Shown: positions 415 through 64,000 of the stretch, piece after piece
Layout: the number at the start of each line of letters is the position of its first letter
Numbering within the stretch: position 1 is the first letter of the stretch
Source of the DNA: a virus
Strand: one strand, 5' to 3'
Length of the DNA stretch: 64,000 nucleotides
Virus record (IMG/VR): IMGVR_UViG_3300043395_002432
Location: 32,001 to 96,000 of that record
Notes under the pieces: model-generated
What the model was told of the DNA's origin: nothing
What the model saw: the letters and a program-made list of their open reading frames with translations, nothing else
Databases searched by the model: none
Program-made: the position numbers and the translations under genes

Positions 415-1101
415 TCACCTCCAGTAAGAGACCACCAAGACCCAATCCGTCGTATCTACCCAGGGGTCATACTCGTCGAGCGTGATCGTGTCCCCGCTGA
501 TCTCGTAGCCCGAGGTCAGCTCCAATCCGTTCAGTGTCACCCTCGGAACGCAGTTCGCATGCGGGGTCTCGCTTAGCTCCCACTCCCATGTCTCGTTGTC
601 GAGCGTGAATGAATCCTGCTGATCTTGTCGATAAGTACCGGCACTTTCAAACGTGACCGTATCGCCATCCCGAACCACGACCCCGTTGCGAAAGTAGACC
701 GCATCCCCCGAACGATACGCCACCAAGACGTTCCCCGTCGTTGGTGCGACCTGCCGAACGACCGTAGGGGTCACGTCCCTTGCTCCAGAGGAGGAGCGAG
801 TCACGCTCATGACCCACATGGCCCCACTTGGCCGCAACGTCACCGGGGAATGATCCGTCGTGATTCGCTGCTGCGCCCCCGTCGACGGCGTCACCAAGAA
901 GAGGTCGTCCGTGAAGGTCAGCTCCCCCGTAGAGGCTGTAAACGAGATCGATCCCCCACCGTAAAGGAAGAGATTACGATCCTCCACAGAAGCATTGAGC
1001 CAAGCATCGATCTGCTCCACCATCGAGCGAAAAATCGGATGCCATTGCTGATCCGCTGACGACGGATACTGGATCGAGAGCCGGGGGCTGGATGCGGGCA
1101 T
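415..1101 (-). CDS. Putative virion structural protein (baseplate module)
   Basis: 228 aa, beta-rich, tightly packed between baseplate genes, GGAGG RBS upstream. Confidence 0.55.
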   Translation of the reverse strand: MPASSPRLSIQYPSSADQQWHPIFRSMVEQIDAWLNASVEDRNLFLYGGGSISFTASTGELTFTDDLFLVTPSTGAQQRITTDHSPVTLRPSGAMWVMSVTRSSSGARDVTPTVVRQVAPTTGNVLVAYRSGDAVYFRNGVVVRDGDTVTFESAGTYRQDQQDSFTLDNETWEWELSETPHANCVPRVTLNGLELTSGYEISGDTITLDEYDPWVDTTDWVLVVSYWR

Positions 1102-1110
1102 GAAGCCTCC

Positions 1111-3204
1111 TTAGAGGGACTGGATCAGGATCGTACCGGGGACGATCACCTGCTCTTGCGAAATGATCAGGTTTTGGTGTCCGTCGACGGAGACTTCCTC
1201 GCAAGCAATCGTGACATTGCACACGTCGACGCCAGGAACGGACTGAACCTCCTCGTAGACCTGCGAGATGTAAAGGTCGTCACCAAAGGCCCGCCGCTTG
1301 AGGAGTGTCCGAATGCGGGCATCGATCTGCCCTTGCACCTGAGAGAAGATGAAGCCGGTGAGCGCCCGGAACTCCACCGTAATGTCAGCCGAGACAAGGG
1401 CATCCGCCCCAGAGGAAACTCGCACGACATGGGCTACGTCACAACGCTCTTGAAGATACGTCTCGAGCGACCGGATCAGCCCGTTCGAAGGGGCGGTGTA
1501 GTCGTCGTTCTGATCGACGGACAAGATCGAAACCGAGATCACGTTGCTAAAGCCGTCCCCATCCAAGACCTCGTCCAGATGCGACCGAAGAAAGAAGAAT
1601 GCGTTCGTCACCGTCTCTCGAGCGGTTTCACCAAGAGAGGAGAGCGCGTCGGCACGCGTCTTCGAGGCTGCAGCCTCGGTGTCAATGGAGGTCATGGCCC
1701 CCTCAATGGAGGCGCGGTGCGTTCCCACCTCTGTGGTCGAGGTCTCCACCAAGGAGATCGTAGAGGTGACGCTCGAGAGCGTAGTCGTCATCTCCGAGAT
1801 CGCCGCGTCCAGGGTCTCGAGGGCGGATTCGAGATCGTCTTGCAAATCCTGTAGGTGCGTGGCGTCAGCCACGATGGAGACGTCGCTCGAAGCCTCCATT
1901 GCCGCAATGACCTGCGGGATCGTCATGTCGTAGCTTTCGCTCTCGGAGGCGGTGGCCCCGGTAAGGGTCGTCGAGACCGAGGACAAGCCCGTCACCCGCC
2001 CCTTCAGACGGTGGGTCTGCTCTCGGAGCGAGGCGATCCGAGCGGTGAGGTTGACTCCTGCCGTCTCCAGCCCGTCACACGCCGTGCCAATCGTGGTGCA
2101 ATGCCCGTCCACGTCGTCCATGCTGGCGGAGATCGTGTCCCCTGCTGAAGCGACCGCGTCGACGTAGTCTTGGTGGCCAGCCGAGGCGAGCGTGATGTAC
2201 GAATTCGCTCGAAGATCCCCACTGGTGCTGCGAGCTACGAAGGCTTTCGCTTGCGATACAGCCCCGTAATCCGCCGAGGAATACGCCGAGGCGACCGCCG
2301 TGTAGTCCTCCGTCGTAATGCAGATGTCGCGGGCTGCAGCATACGAAGGTGCCTTCGCCTTCGCCTCGTCGATCCCCTCGGGATCAGCGCCCCCCGTGCA
2401 ACGCTCGGTCTGAGAGATCGTGAAGTTGATCGCAGAAGCCCCATACGAGAACGGGGAGACGACCGCGTTGACTCCGTTGATGTTGCCCTGAAGCCCCGAG
2501 GTCACGACATAAGCGATCTTCACCTCCAGCCCGGAAGCTGGAATGGCAGCACTCTGCCCGTTGCCGAATCGCACCAAGGGAGGATTCTGGTGATACCAGA
2601 CCTCGAACTCGTTCCCCTCCTCGAAGGTGAGGTTGGTGACCTCCTCCCACTCTACGCCGTCGACCCAGACCCGCACCGAATCCTTTGCGACGTACTTGCC
2701 CACGGGGACGGGAAGCGCGAACTCCTGATCGGGAACGCCAGCCCCTGTCAAGGTGATCGAAGTCGAGTAGCCCTCTCGCACCGAAATCGAATTCGCTTCC
2801 GTAGAGGAGGCTGCGAAGCTGCTCTCCGCCAGCGTCTCCACGATGAAGCCACTCGCGTTCCTGAATTGAAAGCCAGCAGGGAGCGTGAAGGCGAAGTCAT
2901 ACGTCTGAGAGGGGGCGACCGAGATCGTACCGGCACCAGAAACCGCTGGGCGCATTCTGTAGCCAATCTGCCGACACAGGCGCTCCACGTTCGCCCGCTC
3001 CCTCGCCGTCGCAAGGTACGACTCGAGCGCCCGCCGGTCTATGTAGAAGCTCAAGGACTCGCCCACGAACGCGATCAAGTCCACCAGCATCATGCCCATG
3101 CTCGATGCCGCGAAGTCGTTGTAAGTATCCCCGTACTTCGTCTCAATTCGCTTGAGCAGTTCGTTGACGATGGTATCAAAGTCACGCGCAAGGTAGTGCT
3201 GCAT
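1111..3204 (-). CDS. Baseplate wedge protein (gpJ / T4 gp6-like) with long helical insertion
   Basis: N-terminal RDFDTI...DF..SS.GMMLVDLIAFVGESLSFYIDR...E.YL.TARER; VRFGNG; GGADPE; ITTEDY motifs; follows gp25-like gene. Confidence 0.9.
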   Translation of the reverse strand: MQHYLARDFDTIVNELLKRIETKYGDTYNDFAASSMGMMLVDLIAFVGESLSFYIDRRALESYLATARERANVERLCRQIGYRMRPAVSGAGTISVAPSQTYDFAFTLPAGFQFRNASGFIVETLAESSFAASSTEANSISVREGYSTSITLTGAGVPDQEFALPVPVGKYVAKDSVRVWVDGVEWEEVTNLTFEEGNEFEVWYHQNPPLVRFGNGQSAAIPASGLEVKIAYVVTSGLQGNINGVNAVVSPFSYGASAINFTISQTERCTGGADPEGIDEAKAKAPSYAAARDICITTEDYTAVASAYSSADYGAVSQAKAFVARSTSGDLRANSYITLASAGHQDYVDAVASAGDTISASMDDVDGHCTTIGTACDGLETAGVNLTARIASLREQTHRLKGRVTGLSSVSTTLTGATASESESYDMTIPQVIAAMEASSDVSIVADATHLQDLQDDLESALETLDAAISEMTTTLSSVTSTISLVETSTTEVGTHRASIEGAMTSIDTEAAASKTRADALSSLGETARETVTNAFFFLRSHLDEVLDGDGFSNVISVSILSVDQNDDYTAPSNGLIRSLETYLQERCDVAHVVRVSSGADALVSADITVEFRALTGFIFSQVQGQIDARIRTLLKRRAFGDDLYISQVYEEVQSVPGVDVCNVTIACEEVSVDGHQNLIISQEQVIVPGTILIQSL

Positions 3205-3211
3205 TTTCCCC

Positions 3212-3571
3212 TCACAGCATCGGTACGCGCATGGACAAGGTCTGTTGAACCCCCGTCCTCGCGTAGATCAGGGTGACGTTTGCTTCGTTCCCCACGAAGC
3301 GAACCTGAATGTCTCGAATCTGAATCCGACGCTCTTGCGCCCGCAAGCTCTGCCGAATCTCCTCTCGAATGAGGTTCGCCACCACCGGGGTGGCCCCCTC
3401 GAAGAGGAATCGCTTGAGCGCGCTCCCCACGGAGGGACGGTACACACGCTCTCCACGCTGCACCAAGAGGATCTGGTGGATCGACTGCCGAATCGCCTCC
3501 TCATCCGAAGGAGGTGCTGCCGGAAGCTGATCCCCAGATGCCCACGGAAAGGAAAGTGTCTGGATCGCCAT
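3212..3571 (-). CDS. GPW/gp25-family baseplate protein
   Basis: IRQSIHQILLVQRGERVYRPSVGS.L..FLFE...E.RI signature of gp25/GPW. Confidence 0.92.
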   Translation of the reverse strand: MAIQTLSFPWASGDQLPAAPPSDEEAIRQSIHQILLVQRGERVYRPSVGSALKRFLFEGATPVVANLIREEIRQSLRAQERRIQIRDIQVRFVGNEANVTLIYARTGVQQTLSMRVPML

Positions 3572-3595
3572 GTCCTCTGCTTACCGCTTCGCCCC

Positions 3596-3943
3596 TCAGT
3601 AGTCGAGCGGACAGAGCGGAAAGGAGGGCAGCGTTGGAAGCTGAAGCGAGGGCAAGTCCAGATCAATGTCGATGGAAAGCGTCGGAAGCGACGGAAGCGG
3701 GAAAGAGATCGAGAAGCGAAGATCCAAGTCTGGAAGGGTCGGCAGGTTGAGGGTCGGCAAATCCAGATCGATGTCAATGCTCAGGATCGGAAGAGTCGGG
3801 AGCGGAAGAGTCGGGAGACGAGGCAGGCGAACACTGAGTCGCGGAATCTCCGGCAACGTGAGCTTCGGCAAGTCGAGATCCAAGTCGAAGCTCAACGTCG
3901 GAAGCATTGGGAGCGGGGGGATCGGAAAGCGACACCGGCTCAG
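3596..3943 (-). CDS. Pro/Leu-rich internally repeated small protein
   Basis: Three LP[TI]LS[FI]D[LI]DLDLP repeats. Start uncertain: CTG at 3943 overlapping the upstream TGA, or ATG at 3907. Confidence 0.6.
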   Translation of the reverse strand: MSRCRFPIPPLPMLPTLSFDLDLDLPKLTLPEIPRLSVRLPRLPTLPLPTLPILSIDIDLDLPTLNLPTLPDLDLRFSISFPLPSLPTLSIDIDLDLPSLQLPTLPSFPLCPLDY

Positions 3944-4644
3944 GGGATCACCTTCTGGCTCTTCGAGAAGAGGATCGTGAGGGGCTTGGTGAGCTTCAGG
4001 TTCTTCTCCGCGAGGAGCTTCTGGAAGGTCTTGGGGCGATAGCCGGTCTGGTTGGCCAGTGAATCCAAGCTCTCGAGCCACGCGAGGCGCACCTTGAGGT
4101 ACTGCTCGAGCCATACCAGCTCACGCCCGCCGTCACTTGGTGGAGACTCGGGGAAGCGATTCCGCAGCTTCTGCCAATCGACCCCCTGGACGTAGCTGTC
4201 CAGCACCACGGCGAAGGAGAGCGGCTCCACAAGGCCGAGCTTGGTGGCGTAGTTGTACGCGGGAAGCGCGTAGAGCTGGTGAAAGATCGTGTCCTGCGCC
4301 GCTTGCATGACCGGGTCAGAGCCAGCCGCCTCGAGCAGGGCTTTCAGGGCGGTGTTCCCCGAACCCTGATCCTGCTTCAAGATCACGACGTAGCTCTTGA
4401 GCTTCGCCGCGAGGGAACCCCCTCGCGTGATGTACTCCTCCACGATCCGATCCAGGGTGTCGGGTTTATCCGCCGCCTGGAACCAGCCATAGCTCAGCCC
4501 CCCCTTGTCCTTGGGGTGATCCGCAATTCGAGAGAAGCCCCCGGTCGGAGAGCCAGTCTCGAAGCTGCGAATGATCTGAAGGGCAGCAGCGTACCCTGGC
4601 GTCCCAATTGCGTACTGCGAGGGCGCTTGAGATGTCTCAGCCAT
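3940..4644 (-). CDS. Lysozyme-fold glycoside hydrolase (GH46 chitosanase-like / VgrG3-C-like), probable peptidoglycan hydrolase
   Basis: FETG...D.GGLSYG.FQ catalytic region and QD..F...Y..PA...A..LGL....S.AVVLDS.VQG. Confidence 0.75.
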   Translation of the reverse strand: MAETSQAPSQYAIGTPGYAAALQIIRSFETGSPTGGFSRIADHPKDKGGLSYGWFQAADKPDTLDRIVEEYITRGGSLAAKLKSYVVILKQDQGSGNTALKALLEAAGSDPVMQAAQDTIFHQLYALPAYNYATKLGLVEPLSFAVVLDSYVQGVDWQKLRNRFPESPPSDGGRELVWLEQYLKVRLAWLESLDSLANQTGYRPKTFQKLLAEKNLKLTKPLTILFSKSQKVIP

Positions 4645-4677
4645 GTCGTTTCTCCGTCATGAGTCCCTTAGCCACGA

Positions 4678-4983
4678 TCAACGAGATTCGCCCATTGGGT
4701 AGAGCATGACGTCCACCCACGCCGAGAGATGGTGCCGATCCTCGTCGCTGTAGTCGACCGCGCTCACCAAGAAGATCACCACGTCGCTCGCATGCGCCTC
4801 GATCAGATCGCACAAGTAGTCCTCGGAAGGAATCACCCGCCCCACGGATTCCTCCCACCGCTGTAGCACCAAGTAGATCCCCGGACGCCTGATCCCAAGC
4901 AGCCGAAGGGCGACCTCACCCTCGCGCTGCTGCACCTCCCGAACCTCCTCCCCCCATTCGCCCTGAAAGACCCTCATGGCCAC
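4678..4983 (-). CDS. Hypothetical protein
   Basis: Fills the gap in a co-oriented gene string. Confidence 0.6.
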   Translation of the reverse strand: MAMRVFQGEWGEEVREVQQREGEVALRLLGIRRPGIYLVLQRWEESVGRVIPSEDYLCDLIEAHASDVVIFLVSAVDYSDEDRHHLSAWVDVMLYPMGESR

Positions 4984-4984
4984 C

Positions 4985-5494
4985 TCACTTGGTGCCGAGC
5001 TTGGAGAGACCTTCGTTCACCTCGGCGTCCAAGCGTAGCAGCGTACTGACCAAGTCGTCAAATTCACCAAAGGACTGAAGGGTCTCCAGCAAATTCGCAT
5101 GCCCCTCAGCTCCAGCAGCGGCAGCCATTCCCGTGTGCGAGCGATTCGACGGCTTGATCGTAGGATCAGCCATGATCCCCTTCAAGACCCGATTCCGAAT
5201 CCCCCCACCACGCGTCCGAGCCTCATTCGCGTCGAGGAGCGCCTCCTGCGAGATCGAATTCGCTTCGGCGGGCTGAAGGTACATCAGCCGCTCCGCACCA
5301 AGTATCTTCTCTACGCGCTCAGCCTGGATCTGCACCCGCGAGAGCATCCCCTGAAGGCTCGAAGCCAACGCCTCAAGCTGCCCCCGAGCGACCTCTCGCT
5401 CCATCGGGGAAGATTCGCGCCACAACCGCTGACGAGCGGCGTTCGCGTCCTCGGAATCCCCGTAGATCGATAGCAATGCAAGAAAGAGCCTCAT
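4985..5494 (-). CDS. Hypothetical protein
   Basis: ORF with GGAGG RBS before ATG 5494; helical. Confidence 0.6.
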   Translation of the reverse strand: MRLFLALLSIYGDSEDANAARQRLWRESSPMEREVARGQLEALASSLQGMLSRVQIQAERVEKILGAERLMYLQPAEANSISQEALLDANEARTRGGGIRNRVLKGIMADPTIKPSNRSHTGMAAAAGAEGHANLLETLQSFGEFDDLVSTLLRLDAEVNEGLSKLGTK

Positions 5495-5539
5495 TGATCC
5501 CTCCGCTCTAAGCGTATACACCAAGACCCGCCGAACGTG

Positions 5540-6145
5540 TCAAGAAGCAGCCTTGATCCCGAGGGCGTCCCGAGCCTCTCGCGCATGCTCGATCCGCTGA
5601 TTCGTCCCCTCGATCTCCAACGGCGTCACACAGTCACGCAGCGCCTCCAGCGTCGACTTCATCAGGAAGTCGGGAAGCCGCGCCTTCACCACGTTGGTGC
5701 TGATCAGGGTCACACGCCGGTGGAGCATCCGGTGCCGAAGCAGCTCGTCGAAGACTTGCTCGTTGAACCCCTTACCGTCCGCCCGCTCCTTCCCAAGATC
5801 GTCCAGCCCAAGCACCTGAACCGAACGCATGCGCTCGATCATGCTCTCCTGCGCGTCGAACATGGTGCGCTGAAAGATGAAGTCCTTGATCGCCGCACTC
5901 TCCACGAAGAGGGCAGTATGCCGGTGACGACGCGCCTCCTGCAAGGCAGCGCAGACGAACGTCGTCTTGCCGATTCCGTTGTTCCCGCAAAGGAGCAGCC
6001 CGCGCCCCGCCATGACGTGCGACTCGATCTCCCTGAGGTACGCCTGAAGGATCTCAGGAAAGCGCGTCGGATCGATCTCTTTGGGGTAGTATCGGGGCGG
6101 GATCTGCATCCGCTCCATGTCGGACAAGGTGAGGGGGCGTTTCAT
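5540..6145 (-). CDS. DnaC/IstB-like ATPase (helicase loader)
   Basis: Walker A GNNGIGKT, Walker B LGLDDLGKE, LLRHR...TLISTN. Confidence 0.88.
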   Translation of the reverse strand: MKRPLTLSDMERMQIPPRYYPKEIDPTRFPEILQAYLREIESHVMAGRGLLLCGNNGIGKTTFVCAALQEARRHRHTALFVESAAIKDFIFQRTMFDAQESMIERMRSVQVLGLDDLGKERADGKGFNEQVFDELLRHRMLHRRVTLISTNVVKARLPDFLMKSTLEALRDCVTPLEIEGTNQRIEHAREARDALGIKAAS

Positions 6146-6216
6146 GGAACCTCCAAGCACCAATATAGGCTCACCCCACAGATAGACAGCCCCCAGCGCA
6201 CCTCTTGACGGAGGCT

Positions 6217-6630
6217 TTACTGCACCACCGCCATGAGATCCAACACCGCCTCGGCCTGCGCGAGACTCGGCAACTTCGCACCAAAGTCCAGCTCAAGCCC
6301 CGTCGTGACGTAGACCGGCTGCATCCCAGGACGCTTGCACACCAAGAGGTACTTCTTCGACCCGGCAGCACGGCTCCAGCCGGTGGGATATCCCCGATTC
6401 GGATACGATCCGGGCGCGGGCGTCCCGTCCCAATCCTGATCCTTCAGGTAGGCCGAGATCGTCGGGTTGAACGCCCGAAGGAAGTCCCCCGGCTTCTCAA
6501 GCTCCTTCGCAGAGAAGAGGGTCATGGCCTCGTTCTGGGCGTAGAGGTTGAAGGCATCCTCTGCCCAGAACGGCACCTCCATCGGCTCGGACTCACTTCC
6601 CTCGTTGAGCGCGTCAATCAGTGTTCGCAT
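6217..6630 (-). CDS. Hypothetical protein with LxE-type N-terminal leader
   Basis: MRTLIDALNEG start; strong RBS. Confidence 0.65.
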   Translation of the reverse strand: MRTLIDALNEGSESEPMEVPFWAEDAFNLYAQNEAMTLFSAKELEKPGDFLRAFNPTISAYLKDQDWDGTPAPGSYPNRGYPTGWSRAAGSKKYLLVCKRPGMQPVYVTTGLELDFGAKLPSLAQAEAVLDLMAVVQ

Positions 6631-6671
6631 GGGGTCTCCCTCTCCTGGGGTAACCCCTACGAAGGCTTAGA

Positions 6672-7262
6672 TCAAAAATCATCCATGTTGAATTTGCCCG
6701 AATCGAACTCCCGCTCCTTCAGGTGCTTCTTTCCGGCGGGGACTTGGGCGTCCGCTTGCTGCGAGAGCATCTTGGTGAACCGCTCGGCAGGATTCGTCTT
6801 GTCGAGGAAGTCCTGAAGCAGCGTCGTCCGCTCCCGCACCAAGACCGGGAGCCTCGGCAGCCCCATTGGGAACTGCGCCCGAAGCTGGAGCGCGTAGACC
6901 TCGTACAGCTCAATGGCTCGAGCCATGACCGGGCCGCTGTTGTGGGCGCAAGTCAGAACGAAGCTCCGCAACACTCCCCAATCCAGAGGCTGCGCCACGA
7001 ACTTGCCTTCGGGGAGGAGGTGTCCGTACTTGCGTTCCACCCCGTCCTTGTAGGCTTGGTACGCCTCGATCCGCCACTGCTTGCGTAGCGCCTCAATGTC
7101 CGTCACCCGCTCCTTGGTGCGCTCCTTGGGCGGAGGGACACGATCCTCGAACAATGCCTGAGCCTTCCGCTCTGCTCGCTTCTCCTCCGTCCTCCGCTTA
7201 GACTCCTCCCCTCGCTCAATAGCACTCTCTACGCGAAACCGAAGCAGCTTCATGTCGCTCAC
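6672..7262 (-). CDS. Hypothetical protein
   Basis: 196 aa ORF with GGAGG RBS. Confidence 0.6.
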   Translation of the reverse strand: MSDMKLLRFRVESAIERGEESKRRTEEKRAERKAQALFEDRVPPPKERTKERVTDIEALRKQWRIEAYQAYKDGVERKYGHLLPEGKFVAQPLDWGVLRSFVLTCAHNSGPVMARAIELYEVYALQLRAQFPMGLPRLPVLVRERTTLLQDFLDKTNPAERFTKMLSQQADAQVPAGKKHLKEREFDSGKFNMDDF

Positions 7263-7292
7263 CCGTTCCTCCGCATTCGAATTCGTCTTAGC

Positions 7293-7838
7293 CTACCGGG
7301 CCGTCTTGAGCGTAGGACGACCGCCACTCGGCGTCGTCGAGATCAGCTTGGTCTGAATGAAGAGATCGAACTCCGCCCTAAGGTCGACCTCCGAGATCAG
7401 GATGTCTCCGCCCATGTACGCTGGGCAGATCCACGCCCCCACCTCGGCATTCCAGACCCACTCCTGCCCCTGGAGGAGCTTGCGCGCTGCCGTCATGAGG
7501 AGCGCCATTCGCTTCGCCTTCGCGTCCGTCCCCCGGTGGGCCTCTACGTCCCCCGTGAATTGCAGGACGAACATGGAATTGAGCCGCAACCGCTCGATCA
7601 GATCCGGGTAGATCTGCTCGCAGGTTCGCACCAAGGCGATGAAGATCGCCATGCCGCTGACTTGCGACACCACGCTCAGCGAAGGCTTGTACGCCTCCAC
7701 CACCAAGCCACAGCCCAGGTCGACCCGTGTGACCTGCTGCGCGTGGGCATTGATCGTGTCCGCCAACGAGACCAATCCCCCACCGAACGTATCCATGAAC
7801 GACATCAGAAGCCCTCGTCCACAAGGATACCCACCCAC
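7293..7838 (-). CDS. Hypothetical protein
   Basis: ORF in gene string; start may be near 7805. Confidence 0.55.
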   Translation of the reverse strand: MGGYPCGRGLLMSFMDTFGGGLVSLADTINAHAQQVTRVDLGCGLVVEAYKPSLSVVSQVSGMAIFIALVRTCEQIYPDLIERLRLNSMFVLQFTGDVEAHRGTDAKAKRMALLMTAARKLLQGQEWVWNAEVGAWICPAYMGGDILISEVDLRAEFDLFIQTKLISTTPSGGRPTLKTAR

Positions 7839-7894
7839 CCCGAATGGATCGCTAAGAACCTGCTAAGGCGGAGGCGACGACGAATTCGAATTCG

Positions 7895-8272
7895 TCAGAT
7901 CCCGAAGGGAGACTTCGTCGGCAACGCCCCTCGCGCCTCCTCCTCGGCTCGCTTCCGCTCCTCGCGCTTCCGCTCCTGCCGCACCTGACTGATCCGAATC
8001 GCCAGCTCGTTCTCCTTCCGCTTCAGCCCCCGCTCCTCCAAGAAGATCGTCGTGCGCGCCTTCTCCCGCATGCGGTAAAGCTCCTGCACCAAGTCTGACT
8101 TCGCTTGGTGCATCTTTCGCAGCTTGATCATCTCCTCCGTCGTCAGCTCGCGCCCTTTGCGAGCGTCAGACATCTCCTTGACGAACGCTCGCTGCTTGGC
8201 CGAGAGCTTGACCGCCAGCAAGTCACTGATCACGACGAGCATGCTCAGATCGTTATCGTCGAATGCGAACAT
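7895..8272 (-). CDS. Hypothetical coiled-coil protein
   Basis: Charged helical ORF directly after the 8275 stop. Confidence 0.6.
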   Translation of the reverse strand: MFAFDDNDLSMLVVISDLLAVKLSAKQRAFVKEMSDARKGRELTTEEMIKLRKMHQAKSDLVQELYRMREKARTTIFLEERGLKRKENELAIRISQVRQERKREERKRAEEEARGALPTKSPFGI

Positions 8273-8274
8273 GG

Positions 8275-8526
8275 CTACTCCAGAAAGGGGACGAAGGGGG
8301 CGGCATGCAAAGCCTCGATCCGCATGTCGTCTATCGACATTTCCGTCGTGACCGGACTCGCCAGATCCTGTATCTCCCAATCCCCCGAAGCCTCTACTGC
8401 CCTGGCTCCGTTCAGGAAGGCATCTGGATCGAGCATGCCGATCTGCTTCAGCACCGCTGGGACGTCAGCCGGATCGCATTCAAGCACATGCACGGCGACG
8501 AATTTCAGCCTCACCTCTGTGGGCAT
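8275..8526 (-). CDS. Hypothetical protein
   Basis: 83 aa; GAGGAGG RBS. Confidence 0.6.
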   Translation of the reverse strand: MPTEVRLKFVAVHVLECDPADVPAVLKQIGMLDPDAFLNGARAVEASGDWEIQDLASPVTTEMSIDDMRIEALHAAPFVPFLE

Positions 8527-8528
8527 AG

Positions 8529-8567
8529 AAAACCCTCCTCTTGGGAGAGTAACCCCAAGAGGAGGGT
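8529..8567 (-). terminator. Intrinsic terminator after thyX
   Basis: 14-bp stem ACCCTCCTCTTGGG/CCCAAGAGGAGGGT followed by TTTT on the minus strand. Confidence 0.65.
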
Positions 8568-8575
8568 GGCGTTGC

Positions 8576-9475
8576 TTAGAGAAGGTCGGCCAGGGCCGAC
8601 TCCAGCCCCAAGACCTCCAAGAGATGCCGCCGTTCCGTCACTGAAGCCCCCGCCTCCGTGTCGAGGTTCCGCATGATCGACTTCCGCACGGCGTCGAGCG
8701 CGGCAGGATCGCGCCGCAGGAGGTGCGCCATGTCCTTCAGCACCTCATGCTCCATGCGAGAGAGACGAACCGCCTGCCGAATGTAGTCCTCGAACGCCTC
8801 CGCCAGGATCGGGAAAAGCACCTTGAAGTGCTTGTACATCTCCTCGGCAAGCTCGCGGATCTCTACCTGCGCGTCGTGAGCGAGACGCAAGCGAAGGAAG
8901 TTCATGAGGTTCCAAGTGTCCATCGTGAAGTGGTACACCGTAGAGGAATCGAGCGAGAGCGCCTGCCGTGCCTGCTCCCGAGCCGCTCCCGCGTCGACCA
9001 TGTCGTGGTAGAGTTCCAGCCCGTTGGTGGAATGCTCGAGGAGACGACGGAGGAATTCGTTGCTCACCTCGGCGTCCACCAAGCCCTCGCTCATCTGGCG
9101 GTTCAGGGCGCTCTGCTTGCGGAGGGGGTACGACTTGATCCGCACAGGGAAGCCGTCAGCCGACGCCTCCCCCTTAGGCCGCTTGGTGTACCGGTCGCTA
9201 CGCACGGAGAGGCTCTGCGTCCGGTGCCGCACATGCTGCCGCTCTACCATGACGCTCGTCACGACCTGAAAGTGCATCTGGCCGAACTCGAGCGGCGACG
9301 TGTGCATGTCGCGCACCAAGCGCCGAAGGAGCGCCCGATCCGACGATGCCTTCTTCACTGAAGCCAAGCCCCCTACGGAGTTACGCGCCACTTCCGCCAG
9401 AAGGGCGTCCGTCCCGTAGTGTCCCACCAAGCGAATGGAGCTTCCGTTGGGAAGCGTTACCCAGGTCTCATTCAT
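8576..9475 (-). CDS. thyX: FAD-dependent thymidylate synthase
   Basis: HTSPLEF, RQHVRHRTQSLSVRSDRY (RHRx7S), AREQAR..L, NFLRLR...AQ.EIR. Confidence 0.96.
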   Translation of the reverse strand: MNETWVTLPNGSSIRLVGHYGTDALLAEVARNSVGGLASVKKASSDRALLRRLVRDMHTSPLEFGQMHFQVVTSVMVERQHVRHRTQSLSVRSDRYTKRPKGEASADGFPVRIKSYPLRKQSALNRQMSEGLVDAEVSNEFLRRLLEHSTNGLELYHDMVDAGAAREQARQALSLDSSTVYHFTMDTWNLMNFLRLRLAHDAQVEIRELAEEMYKHFKVLFPILAEAFEDYIRQAVRLSRMEHEVLKDMAHLLRRDPAALDAVRKSIMRNLDTEAGASVTERRHLLEVLGLESALADLL

Positions 9476-10007
9476 GCTGTCTCCTTGCCTCTTCGAATTG
9501 ATCCCACTTGAAGCGACTCCTCGCCGGAACGAGAAGACCGATCTCGCGTGAGGAGATCGGAATTCGAATTCGTTCATTCACCAAGAGCCACTCGTCCTCT
9601 CTAACCAAGGTGCCTCTGACCTCGAAGGAGTCCATCACACGGTATTCCTCTCCCACCAAGAGGAAGCCTCCGAGCGGCCCCTGCATGTCAAGGACTCTCG
9701 CCGCCGAGATGCCGACGTCGAGGTGTGCGCTCACCAAGAATGCCCGGTGGAGTGCCTCCTCCGCTCGCTCGAGCGTGATCCGGGTCGACACCGGGATCGG
9801 CTCAGGTATCCCGTCCGAGAGTCGCCACACGTCCCGCCGCTCCCCCTCTCCACCAAAGGCCGGAAGGATGGAGATCGTCTCCATCCCCTCCCGCAAGAGG
9901 CGCGGATACACCAAGACCTCTACCTCCCCAAGAGAAGCCGAGATCCGATACCACCAGCCCCGCTGAATACTGCAATGCCAAGAGGCGCGACGCACGAAAG
10001 CCCCCAT
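9468..10007 (-). CDS. Hypothetical protein
   Basis: Only long ORF spanning the gap; boundaries uncertain. Confidence 0.4.
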   Translation of the reverse strand: MGAFVRRASWHCSIQRGWWYRISASLGEVEVLVYPRLLREGMETISILPAFGGEGERRDVWRLSDGIPEPIPVSTRITLERAEEALHRAFLVSAHLDVGISAARVLDMQGPLGGFLLVGEEYRVMDSFEVRGTLVREDEWLLVNERIRIPISSREIGLLVPARSRFKWDQFEEARRQHE

Positions 10008-10020
10008 TCCTGGGGGCTTC
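9996..10020 (-). terminator. Intrinsic terminator after DUF1257 gene
   Basis: AAGCCCCCA-GGAA-TGGGGGCTTT hairpin. Confidence 0.55.
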
Positions 10021-10038
10021 TAACACGCCGAGGGCGGG

Positions 10039-10482
10039 CTACGAGTAGCGAGAGCAGACGAGCTGGATGCGACCGTCAGGCAGCACGGTCTTCTCGACCC
10101 CGTACCCCTCCGCAATCGCGGACTCCATCGTCAGCTCCTCGGCGTAGGTCGCGAGGGTCTGACGAAGCCAGTCCGTGTTATGGAACGCCCCGTCATGGTC
10201 GGGGACGTGCGGCACCCAGTGGGTGACCCCGTCCGTCACGACCCGCTCGAAGCCGACGTCGTTGTAGCCCCCAGGCGACGTCACCACGACACCCCTCCCA
10301 TGCTGCGACCCAGCCAGCACCAAGTGGGCGCGCTGCGTCTCATGGCGGTAGCCCTTGAGGTTCGTGCCGTTCTCAAAATAGAGCAGATCCTGCTCGCGGA
10401 TCTTGAGCGTTGCGGCGAGCGCCTTCTTCAGCAGGCGCAGGTTCGTGATCTGGGGACACTTGATAGGGGTGTAGGCTGACAT
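10039..10482 (-). CDS. DUF1257 (Ycf35-like) protein
   Basis: MS.YT.I...I.NL..L.KAL...NDVGFER...YA.......A...GY.V.....DGRIQLV; sits in Ycf46 cluster. Confidence 0.8.
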   Translation of the reverse strand: MSAYTPIKCPQITNLRLLKKALAATLKIREQDLLYFENGTNLKGYRHETQRAHLVLAGSQHGRGVVVTSPGGYNDVGFERVVTDGVTHWVPHVPDHDGAFHNTDWLRQTLATYAEELTMESAIAEGYGVEKTVLPDGRIQLVCSRYS

Positions 10483-10510
10483 TTGAACTCCTGAGGTGAG
10501 GTTGGGAAGA

Positions 10511-10762: not shown

Positions 10763-10763
10763 T

Positions 10764-11396: not shown

Positions 11397-11408
11397 GATC
11401 CTGACAAT

Positions 11409-15308: not shown

Positions 15309-15385
15309 GCACTCCTCGGTTCACCAAGAAGTACACACCAAGCGCACGCGACCTCACTCGAACCCTGTAAAGAATGTGCTAAGAG

Positions 15386-53086: not shown

Positions 53087-53581
53087 TCATGTGCCTTCGG
53101 AGGGAGCCACCAAGCCGCGATCCCGAGCGTTCGAGAGCGCGATCCGAATCGCGGAGAGCAGCGTCTTCGGCATCGGATCGTCCGGGGCGAGCGTTAGCCA
53201 CGGGAGGGGGACGTAGCGCGTGTCGAGCGGGTCTTGGTGGATTACCAATTGCCACCCCGCGCACTCGGGGTCGTAGTCCTCGTCCTCGGGAATGAGCGTG
53301 TAGTACTCCAAGCTCAACGAGGTCTCCGCCTCGATCTCGTCGATGTCCGTCTCGCAAAGGATCAACGCGAGAATCCACAAGCCAAGCTGGTAGCCTGCAG
53401 GACGATGCAGGGGAATCCTCCGCTCTTGCTCCCCCGTCTCCTTCGACTTCCAATTCCAGTCAGGAATGAAGTCGGAATTGTTCTGCCAGGGGTGAAAGCC
53501 AAGCACCATGCGCGTGATCGGCGCAAGGACGGTGCGGACGGAGCCAGGAAGGCGGTTGACGCGAATGAAGTAGCTGTCCAT
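53087..53581 (-). CDS. Hypothetical protein
   Basis: GAGG RBS; 164 aa. Confidence 0.55.
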   Translation of the reverse strand: MDSYFIRVNRLPGSVRTVLAPITRMVLGFHPWQNNSDFIPDWNWKSKETGEQERRIPLHRPAGYQLGLWILALILCETDIDEIEAETSLSLEYYTLIPEDEDYDPECAGWQLVIHQDPLDTRYVPLPWLTLAPDDPMPKTLLSAIRIALSNARDRGLVAPSEGT

Positions 53582-53644
53582 CGGGTTCCCTCTCGCTCCC
53601 TTGTTCGATTCCTCCTTGGTGGGCAAACGAATTCGAATTCGTCT

Positions 53645-55930
53645 TCAGCCCATGATGAAGGGAGGGGCGGGGACGTCCGGGTTCGCGTCGCTCGTCCCCT
53701 TCTTCGTCTCAAGCCCCGCGTCGTTGAGCCGCTCTACAGGGGCGTACTCGCGCCGATCCAGCTCCGTCATGCCGCCCCCGTCCCACTCTCGCCAGTTCTC
53801 GGGGGTCTTCGAAGGGGAAACCCACTCCAACCCGTCCTCCTCTGTGGTGCCATTCGGATACTCCCGAGCAGCCTCAATCGCCTTCTGCGTTAGGATCGGA
53901 TCAGGCTCAGGGGCAGCACCACGAAGGTGACGTAGCTCCACGTTTTGGTGCCGGAACGGCGCTCGAGGATTGATCGAGTCCTGCGTGACCCAATGCGTGT
54001 CCTCGAGATCCGCCCCCCCATGCACCAAGTCCGAATCAATGTACGACGCCTGCCGAAGGGCCATCAATTCAAGGTTCGTCACCACGCCAGCCACAGCGTC
54101 AGACGTGTCCTTCGATCCACCAAGCGGGTGATCCACCTTCCGCGACAGCGGGTCGTACTCGAGCTGCTTCATCTCGGTCAGGAAGGGTTCGTACTCGTAC
54201 ATCCGAACACGCCCCTCCATGAGCGCGTTTCGAAGCGCCTCATACGCCTCCGTCCCGTCGTCCACCGAGAGGAGGTTCGCCGGTATCCCATTGTCACGAA
54301 GGATCTGGATTCCGTCCGCTGACTGATACTTGTCCAACGTCGTCAACGCTATCTCGAAGCCATGATCCCGAAGCGCGTAAATCAACGCCCGAATCTCTTG
54401 AAGCAGGATGTACTCTCCGCTCGGAGGCTTCACCCTCAAGACGAAGTCGATCTCGATCTCAGGCGCTGACTCGAAGTAGGTCTCCGCAAAGTCAGGCGAA
54501 CGCCGCTCGACCTGCACCAAGCGCGTCGTATGCCCCATGCTGATCCCAAGCCCGTCTCGCGCCAACGACTGATCGACATGGATCACACGAACCGAGTCAG
54601 GGTGACGACGCGGAACCCAACGATACTCATGATGCCCCATGCCAACCTTGATCTTCTTTCGCTCACACAAGACGTCCCAAAGCGGGAGTAGCTTGCTCTG
54701 AAGAATCCAAGTCTCGCTCGAGAAGGGATGCTTCAGCTCTGGACGGATCGTAGGACGGTACAAGCACGCTTGAATCGTCAAGAAGGACGCCACAGCGTCC
54801 GTAGCCATGCCAGCAACGTCCTGAATGCTCGACACGAGGTTGATCTGAAACTCCTTGACGTACTCAAACGGGACGTTGATGATCGTACTCCCGTCCCGAA
54901 GTGCCGATGGATGCACCTCCTCCTTCGGGGCCAGAATGCGAGAGCGTGTCGACCCCTGCCCCACCAAGACTCGGAAGTACTTGCCACTGAAGCTCTCGGC
55001 AGGCTTGACGTCCCACGTCGCCTTGTCAACCACGTAGGTGGTCGGATCGTTCTTTCGCTCGTTCACGCGACGCGCCGAGAACGAATTCGAAGTCGTCTTC
55101 GAGGACATCAGTACCGTCTTCATCGGCACCTTGCCCCCAGAGAGGAAACGGCTCTTGATACGATTCGTGAGCGTGACATACACACGCTCCGCAAGATCGA
55201 AATTCGCCGCCGTCATCGTCTGCCCAGGGGACTGAATGACAGGCTTCTTCCGGCGTCCCATGAAGTTCGTCTCGTCCATGAGGAAGCCAACGACGTCAAG
55301 ACCCAGCGCACGCTCAGAGTTGACGGAGCCAATCTCTACAATAATGCTCTTCGGAAAGCGAATCCCGTCCGCCCTCTCCGTCCAGGGAAACTCCTTCTTG
55401 AAGTAGGGCGAGCTGCTGATCTTCTCCATCACCTTGCCAAGCACGACGCTCTTTGCAAGGTGCAAGCTCTTCGACATGCAGAAGAGGTATATGTTGGAAG
55501 TAGGCGCAATCCCAAGCGCAGACTGCGGGGAACGCATACACGAAAGCTCGTAGAGCTGCCGACAGAAGATGATCGACCCAAGGAAGGTCTTTCCCCAACC
55601 CGTCGACCCTGTCAGGATAATGTCAATGTACCGATCCGCCTCGAAGATTCGATCCAGCTCGTCCTTCAGCGGCTCGTAAAGCGACTCGCACGATTTCCCG
55701 AGAAAGTATGGATCTTGCACGAAGGTTCGTATATCTACCGGCTCCCGATCAAAGACCGCACGCGAGATCGCTTGGTAGGTGCTGTTCGAGCCTATCGCCG
55801 CCTCTTGGATCATTCGAAGGAAGAGCCTCCGCTGCTCGGGCTTGAGTGAGGCTATGGAGTCCTCGATGAGCGCAGCCTCCTCCTCCTTGGTGCGAATGTG
55901 ATGCGAACGCCCACCGCGATTCCGTATCAC
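53645..55930 (-). CDS. Terminase large subunit
   Basis: Walker A TGSTGWGKT, Walker B FLMDE, nuclease HVD.S...D and KVDHP..GSKD.SDAVAG. Confidence 0.93.
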   Translation of the reverse strand: MIRNRGGRSHHIRTKEEEAALIEDSIASLKPEQRRLFLRMIQEAAIGSNSTYQAISRAVFDREPVDIRTFVQDPYFLGKSCESLYEPLKDELDRIFEADRYIDIILTGSTGWGKTFLGSIIFCRQLYELSCMRSPQSALGIAPTSNIYLFCMSKSLHLAKSVVLGKVMEKISSSPYFKKEFPWTERADGIRFPKSIIVEIGSVNSERALGLDVVGFLMDETNFMGRRKKPVIQSPGQTMTAANFDLAERVYVTLTNRIKSRFLSGGKVPMKTVLMSSKTTSNSFSARRVNERKNDPTTYVVDKATWDVKPAESFSGKYFRVLVGQGSTRSRILAPKEEVHPSALRDGSTIINVPFEYVKEFQINLVSSIQDVAGMATDAVASFLTIQACLYRPTIRPELKHPFSSETWILQSKLLPLWDVLCERKKIKVGMGHHEYRWVPRRHPDSVRVIHVDQSLARDGLGISMGHTTRLVQVERRSPDFAETYFESAPEIEIDFVLRVKPPSGEYILLQEIRALIYALRDHGFEIALTTLDKYQSADGIQILRDNGIPANLLSVDDGTEAYEALRNALMEGRVRMYEYEPFLTEMKQLEYDPLSRKVDHPLGGSKDTSDAVAGVVTNLELMALRQASYIDSDLVHGGADLEDTHWVTQDSINPRAPFRHQNVELRHLRGAAPEPDPILTQKAIEAAREYPNGTTEEDGLEWVSPSKTPENWREWDGGGMTELDRREYAPVERLNDAGLETKKGTSDANPDVPAPPFIMG

Positions 55931-60495: not shown

Positions 60496-61161
60496 TCACG
60501 CTCGCGGCTTCGATCTTGGTGCCTTCTTCTTGATCTCCCCCATGAGCTGCGCCTGGATCGACTCTGGGGGCGGTAACGCAGGAAGCCGAAGGTTCGCCTC
60601 CACCGCACCAGCAAGCGCCGTGATCAACGCGTCAGCCTCATGGTCGTTCGCCGTCGCCGGGATCGGAAGCTGAATCTGACGCAAGCGCCCTAAAACCCAC
60701 GCCTTGACCTGCGCCTGCTTGATCTCCCGAGGAGGAGCGCGCCCCAAGACCAGCTTGCGCGCACGCGGGCTGGCAATCTCCCGAATGCCAGGAAAGGGAA
60801 GCGAAGTCTTGGTGCGCCACGCCTGCGCCACAGCAAGCTGGCACGCCCAATGCGCCCCACCGAGCTGCCCCATGCGCCCACCAGCCATTCCAAACGCCAT
60901 GCCCTCTATCGAGATCGCCACAACCTGCTCAGGCGCGTACTCCTCCAGAAGCACATGCACCAAGTGAGACAACGCGTCGCTTAGGTGCAACAGCCGACGA
61001 AGGTCGTCATTCTCTCCATCCCCCTTCTCGCTCTTGATCGTCAGGAGCCGAACCAACGCCCCCTCGGGCGTGCAGACCGCAACCCCCGTGTTCGAGAGCG
61101 AAGCGTCGATCCCCATCACCAAGCGCGATCTTCTCTCCCCGAGCTTCTCCACCTTGAACAT
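60496..61161 (-). CDS. RuvC-like Holliday junction resolvase
   Basis: MGIDASLSNTGVAV, IEG..FG, ND.EADA. Confidence 0.85.
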   Translation of the reverse strand: MFKVEKLGERRSRLVMGIDASLSNTGVAVCTPEGALVRLLTIKSEKGDGENDDLRRLLHLSDALSHLVHVLLEEYAPEQVVAISIEGMAFGMAGGRMGQLGGAHWACQLAVAQAWRTKTSLPFPGIREIASPRARKLVLGRAPPREIKQAQVKAWVLGRLRQIQLPIPATANDHEADALITALAGAVEANLRLPALPPPESIQAQLMGEIKKKAPRSKPRA

Positions 61162-61214
61162 GCCGCCCCCCAATGGAAAAGCCCCAGAAGGGGCCACCGC
61201 TCTTGGTGTAGAGA

Positions 61215-62658: not shown

Positions 62659-62695
62659 GTCTCACCCCGATGAACGAATTCGAATTCGCCACACC

Positions 62696-62729
62696 AAGAA
62701 GGGGGAGCGAAGTCTCCCTCGCTCCCCCC
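62696..62729 (-). terminator. Terminator-like hairpin after recA
   Basis: GGGGGAGCGA...TCGCTCCCCC then TTCTTGGTG. Confidence 0.55.
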
Positions 62730-62750
62730 TCGCGCCCCCTCAGTGAGAGG

Positions 62751-64000
62751 TCACTTCTTCTTCGCCGCCTTCGCAGCAGCACGCGACTCAGCCTCCGTAC
62801 TCACCAAGTCCATGCCCGCAAAGCGAACCTTGAACGCACGCTCCGCCAACTTGCGATTCGAAGGATCAGCACGAAGCCATACCTTCGCCTCGTCCTGATT
62901 GCGGAACGTCACGTCCTCCATGCCAATCCCGTCAAGATGCAGAACCAACTTGCCAGGAAGGGACTCCATCACCGCACACGACGACTTCAAGATCAACTTG
63001 AAGAAATTGTCGAAGTCCTCAATCTCCCCAGCACGCCACCCATCCATGTCCACCAACCGCTGAGCGTACCGTGCCTTCCGATTCGCAGGAGCGAACTTGT
63101 TCTTGGTGACCGTTACCCCAACCTCAATACGATACGCAATCTCCGCCACGTCCGCATCCCTGATCCCAGATCCAGCCCACCTCGGATCTTCCATCCGCTC
63201 CACCTTCGAAGCAGACAAATCCACAATCAACGCAGCCGCGAACAACTGCCCCTTCCCCCCACTCATCGTCCGAGGATCGCCAAACGCAATCCCAATCTTG
63301 TCACGCCACTGCTGAATCCAGATCGACGTCACAGGACGACCACGAAGCGATGCCATGTTGGTGCATTGCCCAACCACACGGAACATGCGGTTGAGGAGAC
63401 GCGCATGCACGCCCATCATCGACTTGTCCGCAGACTCCTGAACCTCAATGTCAGGCGACATGGCAGCAAGCGAATCCACAATCACCATGTCCACCAAGCC
63501 ACTGTTGATCAGCTCAGTGTAGATGTTCGTCACTTGCTCAGCCGAAGGCGGAATCACACGGTACATCGTCCTCGCATACGCAAAACGATTCACCCACGCC
63601 GCGTCGAACGTCCCCTCCACGTCGATCACCGCCACATTGAACGGACGATACGAATTCGCCAGCAGCTCCTCATGCAGCGCCTGCCACTCCGCAAAGCCCT
63701 TCGCCTTCGGATCAGGACGAGGCCCAAGCGGATGCCGAATCACCTTCTGCGCGTAACAGTCGCACGACCCCACCAACGCCCACGTCGCCTCCTCCTCAGG
63801 ATCGTCCGCAGGAATGTCCACCTCCTGCACGTCCACAGCAGGCCGATAGCACCGCGAACACAGAAGCTGACCCTGCCCAGCAGTCCGCCAAGCCGTCAAC
63901 GACTTGCCACTCGACTGCGTCCCCACCAAGATCGTCCCATGCCCAACAGGGATGCCAGCCGTCCCATCCCCATTCACACCAACCGCCAGATCCAGCTCGA
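62751..64000 (-). CDS. RecA/UvsX-like recombinase, 5' end beyond window
   Basis: LDLAVG...GIP.G, Walker A GTQSSGKS, IDVEG, IVDSLAA, QWR.KIG..FGDP.T..GG, KNK..P. Confidence 0.93.
   Translation of the reverse strand, partial: ELDLAVGVNGDGTAGIPVGHGTILVGTQSSGKSLTAWRTAGQGQLLCSRCYRPAVDVQEVDIPADDPEEEATWALVGSCDCYAQKVIRHPLGPRPDPKAKGFAEWQALHEELLANSYRPFNVAVIDVEGTFDAAWVNRFAYARTMYRVIPPSAEQVTNIYTELINSGLVDMVIVDSLAAMSPDIEVQESADKSMMGVHARLLNRMFRVVGQCTNMASLRGRPVTSIWIQQWRDKIGIAFGDPRTMSGGKGQLFAAALIVDLSASKVERMEDPRWAGSGIRDADVAEIAYRIEVGVTVTKNKFAPANRKARYAQRLVDMDGWRAGEIEDFDNFFKLILKSSCAVMESLPGKLVLHLDGIGMEDVTFRNQDEAKVWLRADPSNRKLAERAFKVRFAGMDLVSTEAESRAAAKAAKKK

Follow-up and report, generated by a model that had tools for sequence, protein, structure and literature searches.

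A dispersed non-palindromic heptamer under selection in the genome of an uncultured T4-like phage

Introduction

Why should a phage keep hundreds of copies of one seven-base word scattered through its genes and spacers, and what reads them? This question is raised by CACCAAG (CTTGGTG on the opposite strand) in a stretch of 64,000 nucleotides, hereafter the window, which corresponds to positions 32001-96000 of the 139,496-bp virus record IMGVR_UViG_3300043395_002432, hereafter the contig. A preliminary description, made from the letters of the window, had regarded the word as a selected, non-palindromic signal and had offered three options: a Chi-like recombination motif, a methylation or self mark, or a site for a genome-coating protein. 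Chi, KOPS, uptake sequences and HIP1 are genome-wide words shaped by machines that read the chromosome, and to our knowledge almost all such selected words are cellular; the strongest signal of this kind found in our analysis is viral. CACCAAG is under selection at the DNA level, symmetrically in both orientations and at a genome-wide equilibrium, its sites exclude one another on one side only, and it contacts a second, palindromic element in a fixed orientation.

Abundance of the heptamer and selection on DNA

Exact matches to CACCAAG or CTTGGTG number 194 in the window (117 on the plus and 77 on the minus strand), compared with 6.43 ± 2.52 in 100 dinucleotide-preserving shuffles, none of which reached this value (maximum 12). 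The extreme excess claimed in the preliminary description is therefore real, and its details were accurate as well: where it had counted about 60 copies in bases 1-20,000 by eye, 63 sites start there; its chance expectation of 2-3 copies per 20 kb is close to the value of about 2 to which the shuffles scale; and the 19 coordinates that it cited are all true sites, except that 9733 should read 9732. Sites also stay frequent to the end of the window, as it had stated, and every 10-kb bin of the contig is occupied. The contig as a whole carries 413 sites (246 + 167 by strand), 29 times the 14.3 expected from an order-1 Markov model, which amounts to 2.96 per kb or about one site per 340 bases. 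No strand switch tied to replication was seen along the contig. By comparison, the median density of the word in 94 unrelated viral contigs (1.0 Mb) was 0.074 per kb and the maximum 0.56 per kb. The best z-score of any 7-mer in these controls was at most 20.2, as against 26-36 for CACCAAG in each 12-kb block of the phage; with palindromic words excluded, the best z-score was at most 18.8 in 67 control contigs and at most 16.5 in 43 contigs of the phage lineage. Order-1 and order-2 models and shuffles took the place of maximal-order Markov z-scores, which mask the word because its sub-words are also enriched.

Among the 21 single-base variants of the heptamer, only changes at position 7 were strongly enriched (4.6- to 8.9-fold, the rest ranging from 0 to 3.3-fold). 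Thus CACCAAA, CACCAAC and CACCAAT, already described as common, occur 73, 95 and 38 times on the contig, against 8.3, 10.7 and 8.3 expected. Six positions of the word are strict, and the core is therefore CACCAA (619 copies), with G favoured as the seventh base. Information in the flanks is limited to the adjacent bases (a preceding G in 42% and a following A in 44% of cases), giving a weak context G/C-CACCAAG-A/C, and the intergenic copies revealed no consensus longer than the word. A longer element or repeat family was ruled out, as the flanks are diverse and compositionally flat.

The excess does not vanish when amino-acid sequence and codon usage are preserved. In 200 shuffles that kept the protein sequence and the codon usage of each gene, CACCAAG on the sense strand was expected 26.3 ± 5.0 times (maximum 40) and CTTGGTG 19.9 ± 4.0 times (maximum 29), whereas 144 and 223 copies were found, respectively. 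Each of the six classes of frame and orientation exceeded the maximum of its 200 synonymous shuffles, frame 2 being dominant, and the word reached 2.7 per kb in intergenic DNA (42 sites in 15.5 kb), 2.95 per kb in coding DNA and 2.3 per kb in the tRNA cluster; its reported occurrence in different reading frames, in either orientation and between genes is thus borne out, all three frames being used. Leu-Val is encoded as TTG-GTG in 202 of 347 cases and Thr-Lys as ACC-AAG in 115 of 166. Furthermore, where a choice is available, C is the last base of the codon preceding an in-frame TTG-GTG in 149 of 191 cases, and of that preceding ACC-AAG in 109 of 113, compared with 41.5% genome-wide. As the constraint covers three codons, codon-pair usage cannot be its cause, and a by-product of a single codon pair is ruled out. 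A signal in RNA was likewise ruled out, since the word is enriched in either orientation even though the minus strand holds 173 of the 178 genes called on the contig (by a self-trained caller of open reading frames (ORFs), with 89% of the contig covered). Every test run upheld a selected, non-palindromic signal acting on DNA.

The pressure for the word bends even the protein sequences: Thr-Lys heads the over-represented dipeptides of the proteome (166 versus 95.7 expected, 1.73x), while His-Gln is raised 1.83-fold and Leu-Val 1.17-fold. Of 696 permissive coding positions, at which the word can be reached by synonymous change, 367 (53%) are filled, against about 46 expected from the shuffles, which corresponds to an odds ratio of about 16. 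The advantage of each site is hence modest and spread across many redundant sites. Occupancy is equal in the two orientations (144/267, 54%, and 223/429, 52%), so the 60:40 split between strands reflects opportunity rather than preference. It is also homogeneous among genes (chi2 166.9, 168 degrees of freedom, p 0.51), and the per-gene test found no recently acquired genes devoid of the word; in the absence of heterogeneity, the whole genome is at equilibrium for it.

Spacing of sites and contact with palindromes

The sites are more evenly spread than the permissive positions would allow by chance. When occupancy was permuted among permissive coding positions, the largest gap averaged 2512 ± 424 bp, compared with 1698 bp observed (P 0.013); gaps in the commoner orientation had a coefficient of variation of 1.03, compared with 0.87 observed (0 of 1000 permutations). 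This evenness arises from a short-range exclusion that depends on how the two members of a pair are arranged, tandem and divergent neighbours being roughly 3-5 times rarer than expected. Within 50 bp, tandem pairs of the heptamer were found 4 times where 20.5 ± 3.8 were expected (2000 permutations) and divergent pairs (CTTGGTG...CACCAAG) once where 8.1 ± 2.5 were expected (P 0.0005), whereas convergent pairs (CACCAAG...CTTGGTG) were as frequent as expected (13 versus 13.4), four of them even lying 7-20 bp apart. The core 6-mer, with a set of 553 coding sites that overlaps the heptamer set, behaved alike: 20 tandem pairs versus 57.0 expected (1000 permutations), 7 divergent versus 20.9, and 27 convergent versus 27.1. 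Its ratio of convergent to divergent pairs, 3.67, was reached in none of 1000 permutations, and its pairs at 50-100 and 100-150 bp showed no departure from expectation. A single rule explains all three classes, namely that the roughly 50 bp to the 5' side of CACCAAG are kept free of further sites, whatever their orientation; this interval holds 6 other sites where 36.5 ± 6.1 are expected. The closest same-orientation pair in the window (Table 1) has lost its first site in a population variant from another public sequencing run (X6), in which, among the variants listed, an A>G change at 15323 abolishes it. That variant is about 96-97% identical, with 464 differences across the covered parts of window positions 1-20000.

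The contig is dotted with a second word, the palindrome CGAATTCG, which has 118 sites, 56 of them within intergenic DNA (11% of the DNA). Among these sites are 69 copies of a 14-bp palindrome family, CGAATTCGAATTCG, with the pattern CG[AC]A[GT]TCGA[AC]T[GT]CG. The heptamer lies 0-10 bp from 10 of these 69 copies, against 2.25 expected, with its 5' side toward the palindrome, and the opposite orientation does not occur; the palindromes thus adjoin the same side of CACCAAG as the exclusion zone. One such composite, in the spacer upstream of a 179-amino-acid (aa) ORF, is given in Table 1, and similar ones start at window positions 61656 and 62675. Noc reads 14-bp palindromes, and a ParB/Noc-like protein encoded in the window is a natural candidate reader of those described here.

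Interpretation

What kind of reader would leave such a pattern? Tentatively, we regard CACCAAG as a positively selected 'self' word on duplex DNA, the docking site of an oriented DNA-bound protein. An oriented complex on duplex DNA is ranked first because exclusion differs between convergent and divergent pairs. A monomer-like sequence-specific protein or complex would sit on the word and extend some 35-50 bp to the 5' side of CACCAAG. Selection would keep the chromosome decorated about every 340 bp (the largest gap being 1.7 kb), filling roughly half of the positions that the proteins tolerate, in either orientation. A second site within an existing footprint would bring no benefit and would not be maintained; convergent neighbours could both be occupied, while tandem and back-to-back neighbours would fall beneath the footprint. 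Both the protein footprint as the cause of the exclusion zone and the purpose of the decoration are what we infer from this spacing. With respect to the three options of the preliminary description, the genome-coating protein fits the spacing best, whereas the Chi-like motif is weakened by symmetry, evenness and the interaction across strands. The exclusion zone serves as an internal ruler and yields a concrete, testable prediction about the reader.

The closest resemblance is to the uptake sequences of competent bacteria, that is, the uptake signal sequences (USS) of Pasteurellaceae and the DNA uptake sequences (DUS) of Neisseriaceae. According to the accessible parts of PMC1939737 and PMC2817400, these asymmetric words occur about once per kb, evenly spaced and without orientation bias, in preferred frames and with the encoded peptides about doubled; they serve as a self-recognition tag for a machine that translocates DNA. 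The phage word shares with them both orientations, a frame bias, distorted peptide frequencies (TK 1.73x, HQ 1.83x) and a weak pressure per site. However, it has 7 bases rather than 9-12, is about 3 times denser, and belongs not to a competent bacterium but to a phage with portal, Gp23 capsid, sheath and TerL, in which no uptake machinery is involved; moreover, no counterpart of the one-sided 50-bp exclusion or of the link to a palindrome is mentioned in those parts of PMC1939737 and PMC2817400. From this uptake-sequence-like genomic footprint comes our leading guess, that machinery of the phage, perhaps that of packaging, recognises a dispersed tag on phage DNA. The DNA may be recognised by its sequence through the phage's own DNA-handling proteins, above all those of the packaging block (the ParB-like nuclease, the methyltransferase, the small-terminase candidate and TerL); the tag would then do for packaging what an uptake sequence does for the uptake of DNA. 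The candidate readers form a cluster located between the genes for portal and terminase, which comprises the ParB-like nuclease, a 118-aa ORF, the 478-aa methyltransferase, the 179-aa ORF at the place of a small terminase, and TerL (Table 1). In its specific form, this idea says that packaging proteins read the tag, so that headful packaging or another transaction picks phage over host DNA by a self-recognition free of modification, a proposal that we think unlikely as it stands. At 2.96 sites per kb in the phage and 0.1-0.4 per kb in 406 bacterial genomes, the word would give about 8- to 30-fold discrimination. If the reader is a phage protein, self and host DNA would be told apart without base modification, and a 'packaging uptake sequence', if true, would be a type of signal as yet undescribed in viruses.

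Several points weigh against the docking reading and its extension to packaging. Only gene neighbourhood points to packaging as the reader, and the binder of the word is a candidate. ParB/Noc proteins classically read palindromes. A homologue of the ParB-like protein, 45% identical, is encoded by a relative (G002) that lacks the word apart from 6 CACCAAG in 28.8 kb, so that co-occurrence does not support the ParB-like protein as its specific reader. The 50 bp flanking the sites show no sequence signature of their own, and we know of no described phage with a dispersed packaging tag. In addition, the asymmetry of the exclusion was noticed post hoc and then replicated on the larger, overlapping 6-mer set, the analysis depends on our simple gene caller, and its null is conditioned on present-day proteins that the word itself has shaped.

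The foremost rival, rather unlikely in our view, holds that CTTGGTG is a Chi-like signal, read on single-stranded DNA by a host helicase-nuclease of the RecBCD/AddAB type that is thereby switched from degradation to RecA loading. Such a signal would protect the many DNA ends of a headful-packaged phage replicating by recombination, whose permuted ends require both orientations. The word has the appropriate character, being short, asymmetric and GT-rich (CTTGGTG contains a single C and lacks A) and having TGGTG in common with E. coli Chi, GCTGGTGG. It is also lineage-specific, as expected of a signal set by the host, and it belongs to a phage that faces extreme restriction pressure and has genes for RecA and RuvC-like proteins. 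Known 7-8-base Chi words occur in bacterial genomes at frequencies below the density of the phage word. E. coli RecBCD recognises Chi probabilistically; were recognition probabilistic here, nearby tandem sites should help, yet they are strongly avoided. Furthermore, reading strand by strand, whether by RecBCD at Chi or by a primase on the lagging-strand template, forecasts redundancy among same-strand sites, but neither an interaction between opposite strands nor a difference between convergent and divergent pairs; within 50 bp, however, divergent pairs fall 3- to 8-fold short of expectation and convergent pairs do not.

Chi-rich phages do provide a precedent: in the part of PMC12315714 available to us, LLS is described as having a Chi site every 1.86 kb, 23 in all, which are clustered at one end and of which 20 share an orientation, and MD8 as having 32 Pseudomonas Chi sites, all 32 in the same orientation. 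Chi is undefined for most bacteria, as the accessible part of bioRxiv 10.1101/2020.08.13.249359 puts it. Like the phage studied here, these lambdoids have accumulated a short asymmetric GT-rich word far beyond expectation, and the TGGTG core of E. coli Chi is shared. The differences are nevertheless considerable: the density here is about 5 times that of LLS (one site per 0.34 kb), the sites lie in both orientations and are evenly spread, in place of the orientation bias of LLS and MD8 and the end clustering of LLS, sites on opposite strands interact, and the phage has a recombination module of its own (RecA and a RuvC-like resolvase), which LLS and the other reported Chi-rich lambdoids lack. 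If the word were nonetheless a host Chi-like signal, it would reveal both the host and its Chi.

A molecular drive without function at each site seems quite improbable, even though it has been proposed for DNA uptake sequences and would likewise account for the footprint that the phage word shares with them in the accessible parts of PMC1939737 and PMC2817400 (unbiased orientation, evenly spaced sites, preferred frames and a rough doubling of peptide frequencies). A biased process would copy the word into the population, candidates being a sequence-specific mismatch correction and, in mixed infections, a preference for DNA carrying the word in recombination or packaging. The small advantage per site (odds ratio about 16) and the uniform occupancy across genes are consistent with it. 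Pure mutational or repair bias, however, forecasts neither the one-sided 50-bp exclusion nor the shortened maximum gap, and no transition neighbour of the word showed the specific depletion expected of a Vsr-type mechanism beyond general patterns. A sequence-specific reader would still be required, so that drive overlaps with the docking of an oriented protein.

We give equally little credence to initiation of primers, in which a DnaG-type primase, with a DnaB-like helicase, would start at the template 5'-CTTGGTG-3', with a cryptic 3' G, and lay down the primer ACCAAG, sites on the two strands serving lagging-strand synthesis from forks moving either way. The phage does encode a DnaG-type primase, a DnaB-like helicase and a beta-clamp, the strands are served equally, coverage is even, and same-strand neighbours would be redundant. 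T7 and T4 primers start with pppAC, the T7 template is TGGTC, and an archaeal plasmid primase-polymerase requires GTG. Yet known primases need only about three specified bases, compared with six strict positions here; sites on opposite strands should act independently, but divergent pairs are excluded; redundancy should span hundreds of bases rather than end sharply at 50 bp; and the relatives are without an equivalent word. A search for archaeo-eukaryotic primase-polymerases with PF09250 only gave no match.

Finally, CACCAAG could be the target of a phage methyltransferase or an unrecognised modifying enzyme, more marks giving more protection or labelling of the DNA, as asymmetric 5-7-bp adenine-containing words are typical of Type IIS, Type III and bacteriophage exclusion (BREX)-type methyltransferases, four methyltransferases are encoded, and a bound enzyme could leave a one-sided footprint; this is very doubtful, as none of the four resembles a Type III Mod or is assignable to the word from its sequence, the non-avoided palindromes GATC, GAATTC, GTAC and CATG suffice to account for them, the wholesale purge of restriction sites argues against reliance on a general protective modification, and we know of no modification target enriched 29-fold.

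Comparison with other genome-wide words

The heptamer is unusual among genome-wide selected words in being viral, dense and saturated, and in having a one-sided exclusion zone. HIP1, GCGATCGC, of cyanobacteria is a hyper-abundant short palindrome in genes and spacers of a cellular genome, whereas the heptamer is asymmetric, is not its own reverse complement and resides in a phage; CGAATTCG is the better HIP-like analogue. Noc-binding sites (NBS) and parS sites are 14-16-bp palindromes in tens of copies. They are comparable in being short specific sites dispersed over a genome and read by a spreading ParB-family protein, and a ParB/Noc-like protein is encoded here; their form and number fit the 69 palindromes of the phage, but not its 413 asymmetric heptamers. 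The stoperators of Cluster A mycobacteriophages are 13-bp asymmetric sites in about 20-35 copies, mostly intergenic and in one orientation relative to transcription. These, too, are many dispersed copies of a short asymmetric protein-binding word in a phage genome; in contrast, the heptamer has 413 copies, lies within genes and takes both orientations. Literature searches for over-represented dispersed phage words returned only the Chi-rich lambdoids as comparable, and the heptamer was not found in a relevant sense in the literature searched (the matches were all eukaryotic, and supplementary files lay outside the search).

Relatives and search for the host

Among relatives with 33-43% identity in the portal, the 6 CACCAAG sites of G002 compare with 2 in 16.9 kb of G003 and none in 10.1 kb of G004. 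Another contig (G001, of lineage member L113; 27.1 kb) is related to the phage by an orphan protein of 39% identity (E 6e-100); it has 20 sites of the palindrome CGAATTCG, no CTAG and no CACCAAG. Since it possesses the palindrome without the heptamer, the heptamer system is younger or narrower than the palindrome system. The relatives have palindromes of their own: CGAATTCG in G001, GCAATCGATTGC in G003 and GCGCATGCGC in G004. A search for kin by the 14-bp palindrome gave, L113 excepted, 107 single chance matches. There is also a closer relative, P0002, with a capsid protein 87% identical. The dispersed tag could serve as a handle for assigning related metagenomic fragments to the phage lineage.

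G003 (L140) has an asymmetric DNA-level word of its own, TGGTGCAA, found 12 times versus 0.8 expected, 8 forward and 4 reverse and in three frames. TGGTG is common to this word, the heptamer and E. coli Chi, but the word lies within the range of the control contigs, so that this may be coincidence. A lineage-wide TGGTG rule was rejected: the top 8-mer holds TGGTG/CACCA in 3 of 43 lineage and 1 of 67 control contigs. Words with a z-score of at least 12 are as common in the controls (7/67) as in the lineage (7/43).

Counts of the word in 401 genomes of one bacterial class and 5 metagenome-assembled genomes showed no enrichment in any of them, the maximum being about 0.39 sites per kb as opposed to 2.96 in the phage; this speaks against a Chi-like signal, but weakly so, as the 401 genomes are about 1% of that class and the host is not identified. 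The tally includes the genomes G048, G305, G150, G317 and G257, and the conclusion is unchanged without these five. Homology was no more informative about the host: distant or viral matches were all that came from the capsid protein, a methyltransferase against plasmids, the endolysin against phages, the beta-clamp and ribonucleotide reductase in the Atlas, and a search of bacterial and archaeal assemblies with the capsid alignment.

Genome of the phage

The contig derives from an uncultured freshwater T4-like phage with a virulent-type genome. CheckV rates it as linear and 68% complete. Searches with Pfam, PHROGs and predicted folds recovered T4-type myovirus genes, namely a Gp20-type portal, a Gp23-type capsid protein, a prohead protease and a tail sheath, and the contig further encodes baseplate wedge, tape measure and tail tube proteins. 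No cultured phage has a capsid protein closer than about 25% identity to the one encoded here, and 18 of 20 further proteins checked were without a PHROGs family. Near-identical contigs are present in three further public runs and the variant of about 96-97% identity in a fourth (X6). The four runs are metagenomes of fresh waters or rivers and stem from four studies; the habitat is stated from these runs, leaving out X7-X19 with their small shares, and the uncovered parts of the stretch in runs X4 and X5 carry no information. Because the contigs recur across these studies, the sequence is no assembly artefact.

Table 1. Features of the window, in window coordinates
Feature	Position	Strand	Remarks
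Site population CACCAAG/CTTGGTG	433..63930	both	194 sites; mean gap 329 bp, largest gap 1692 bp
Closest same-orientation pair	15322..15342	+	sites 15322 and 15336; tandem pairs <50 bp very few
ParB/Noc-like protein, 307 aa	50326..51249	-	candidate site-specific DNA binder; Pfam ParB_N 9e-12
N6/N4 DNA methyltransferase, 478 aa	51612..53048	-	one of four methyltransferases on the contig
179-aa ORF	53087..53626	-	directly upstream of TerL; small-terminase candidate by position only
Composite of 14-bp palindrome (CGAATTCGAATTCG family), 6-bp gap and CACCAAG	53628..53654	-	5' side of CACCAAG toward the palindrome
Large terminase TerL, 761 aa	53645..55930	-	Walker A/B and nuclease motifs; predicted fold, pLDDT 79.9
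RuvC-like Holliday-junction resolvase	60496..61197	-	Pfam RuvC weak, 0.003; phrog_159 1.7e-18
RecA/UvsX-like recombinase	62751..64000	-	continues to contig position 96196; PF00154, 1.5e-27 and 1.3e-23

Within the packaging block, the ParB-like protein matches Noc (7ng0), ParB (6t1f) and phrog_26387, 'ParB-like partition nuclease' (2e-39); only its N-terminal CTP-binding-type domain is recognisable, with GEHRMRA replacing GERRxRA. The 179-aa ORF had no family match in Pfam or PHROGs. The predicted fold of TerL matches HK97 (6z6d, E 1.6e-13) and T4 gp17 (3cpe, E 6.3e-11), the overall range for HK97, T4, Sf6 and D6E being E 1.6e-13 to 1e-10. This terminase belongs to a family without a Pfam or PHROGs model, with 3886 homologues at E <= 0.001 and 1426 at E <= 1e-30, which are often split by inteins with LAGLIDADG or HNH endonucleases.

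Of the RecA and resolvases named in the preliminary description, RecA (PF00154) and one RuvC-like resolvase (phrog_159) are indeed encoded. Other DNA-handling genes comprise a superfamily 2 (SF2) helicase, the DnaG-type primase, a class II ribonucleotide reductase, the DnaB-like helicase and the beta-clamp, which is of bacterial type. Besides the methyltransferase of the packaging block, three are encoded at contig positions 8747-9832, 103192-103899 and 131837-132799; three of the four are of the beta-class N6/N4 type and one is Dam/DpnM-like (E 1e-22 to solved Dam structures), which agrees with the absence of GATC avoidance.

Restriction pressure on the phage is extreme, and its genome, among the most thoroughly purged of restriction sites that we have seen, combines this avoidance of words with the accumulation of others. 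CTAG is absent from the contig where 246 copies are expected, as it is from the relatives G001 (27.1 kb) and G002 (28.8 kb). Likewise, 24 of the 64 six-base palindromes do not occur, including (observed/expected) CGATCG (0/105), CGCGCG (0/120), GAGCTC (0/110), CCGCGG (0/94), CGGCCG (0/94) and GGATCC (0/73), and GGCGCC (1/85) and TCGCGA (2/97) are nearly absent. Enriched palindromes are GAATTC (157/40), GTAC (369/138) and GATC (1693/1007).

Outside the window, the class II ribonucleotide reductase (contig 113762-116671) has 969 aa, which its structural look-alikes cover with about 677 residues; inteins or LAGLIDADG domains occur in neighbouring Atlas clusters, and the reductase itself may hold an intein. 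A single 871-aa protein (contig 127330-129945) joins Hen1, with its N-terminal region and methyltransferase, to a Pnkp-type ligase domain. Together with a separate RNA ligase, it forms an RNA-repair set (contig 127330-129945 and 1132-2271) that adjoins a large tRNA cluster at about 10.5-17.4 kb.

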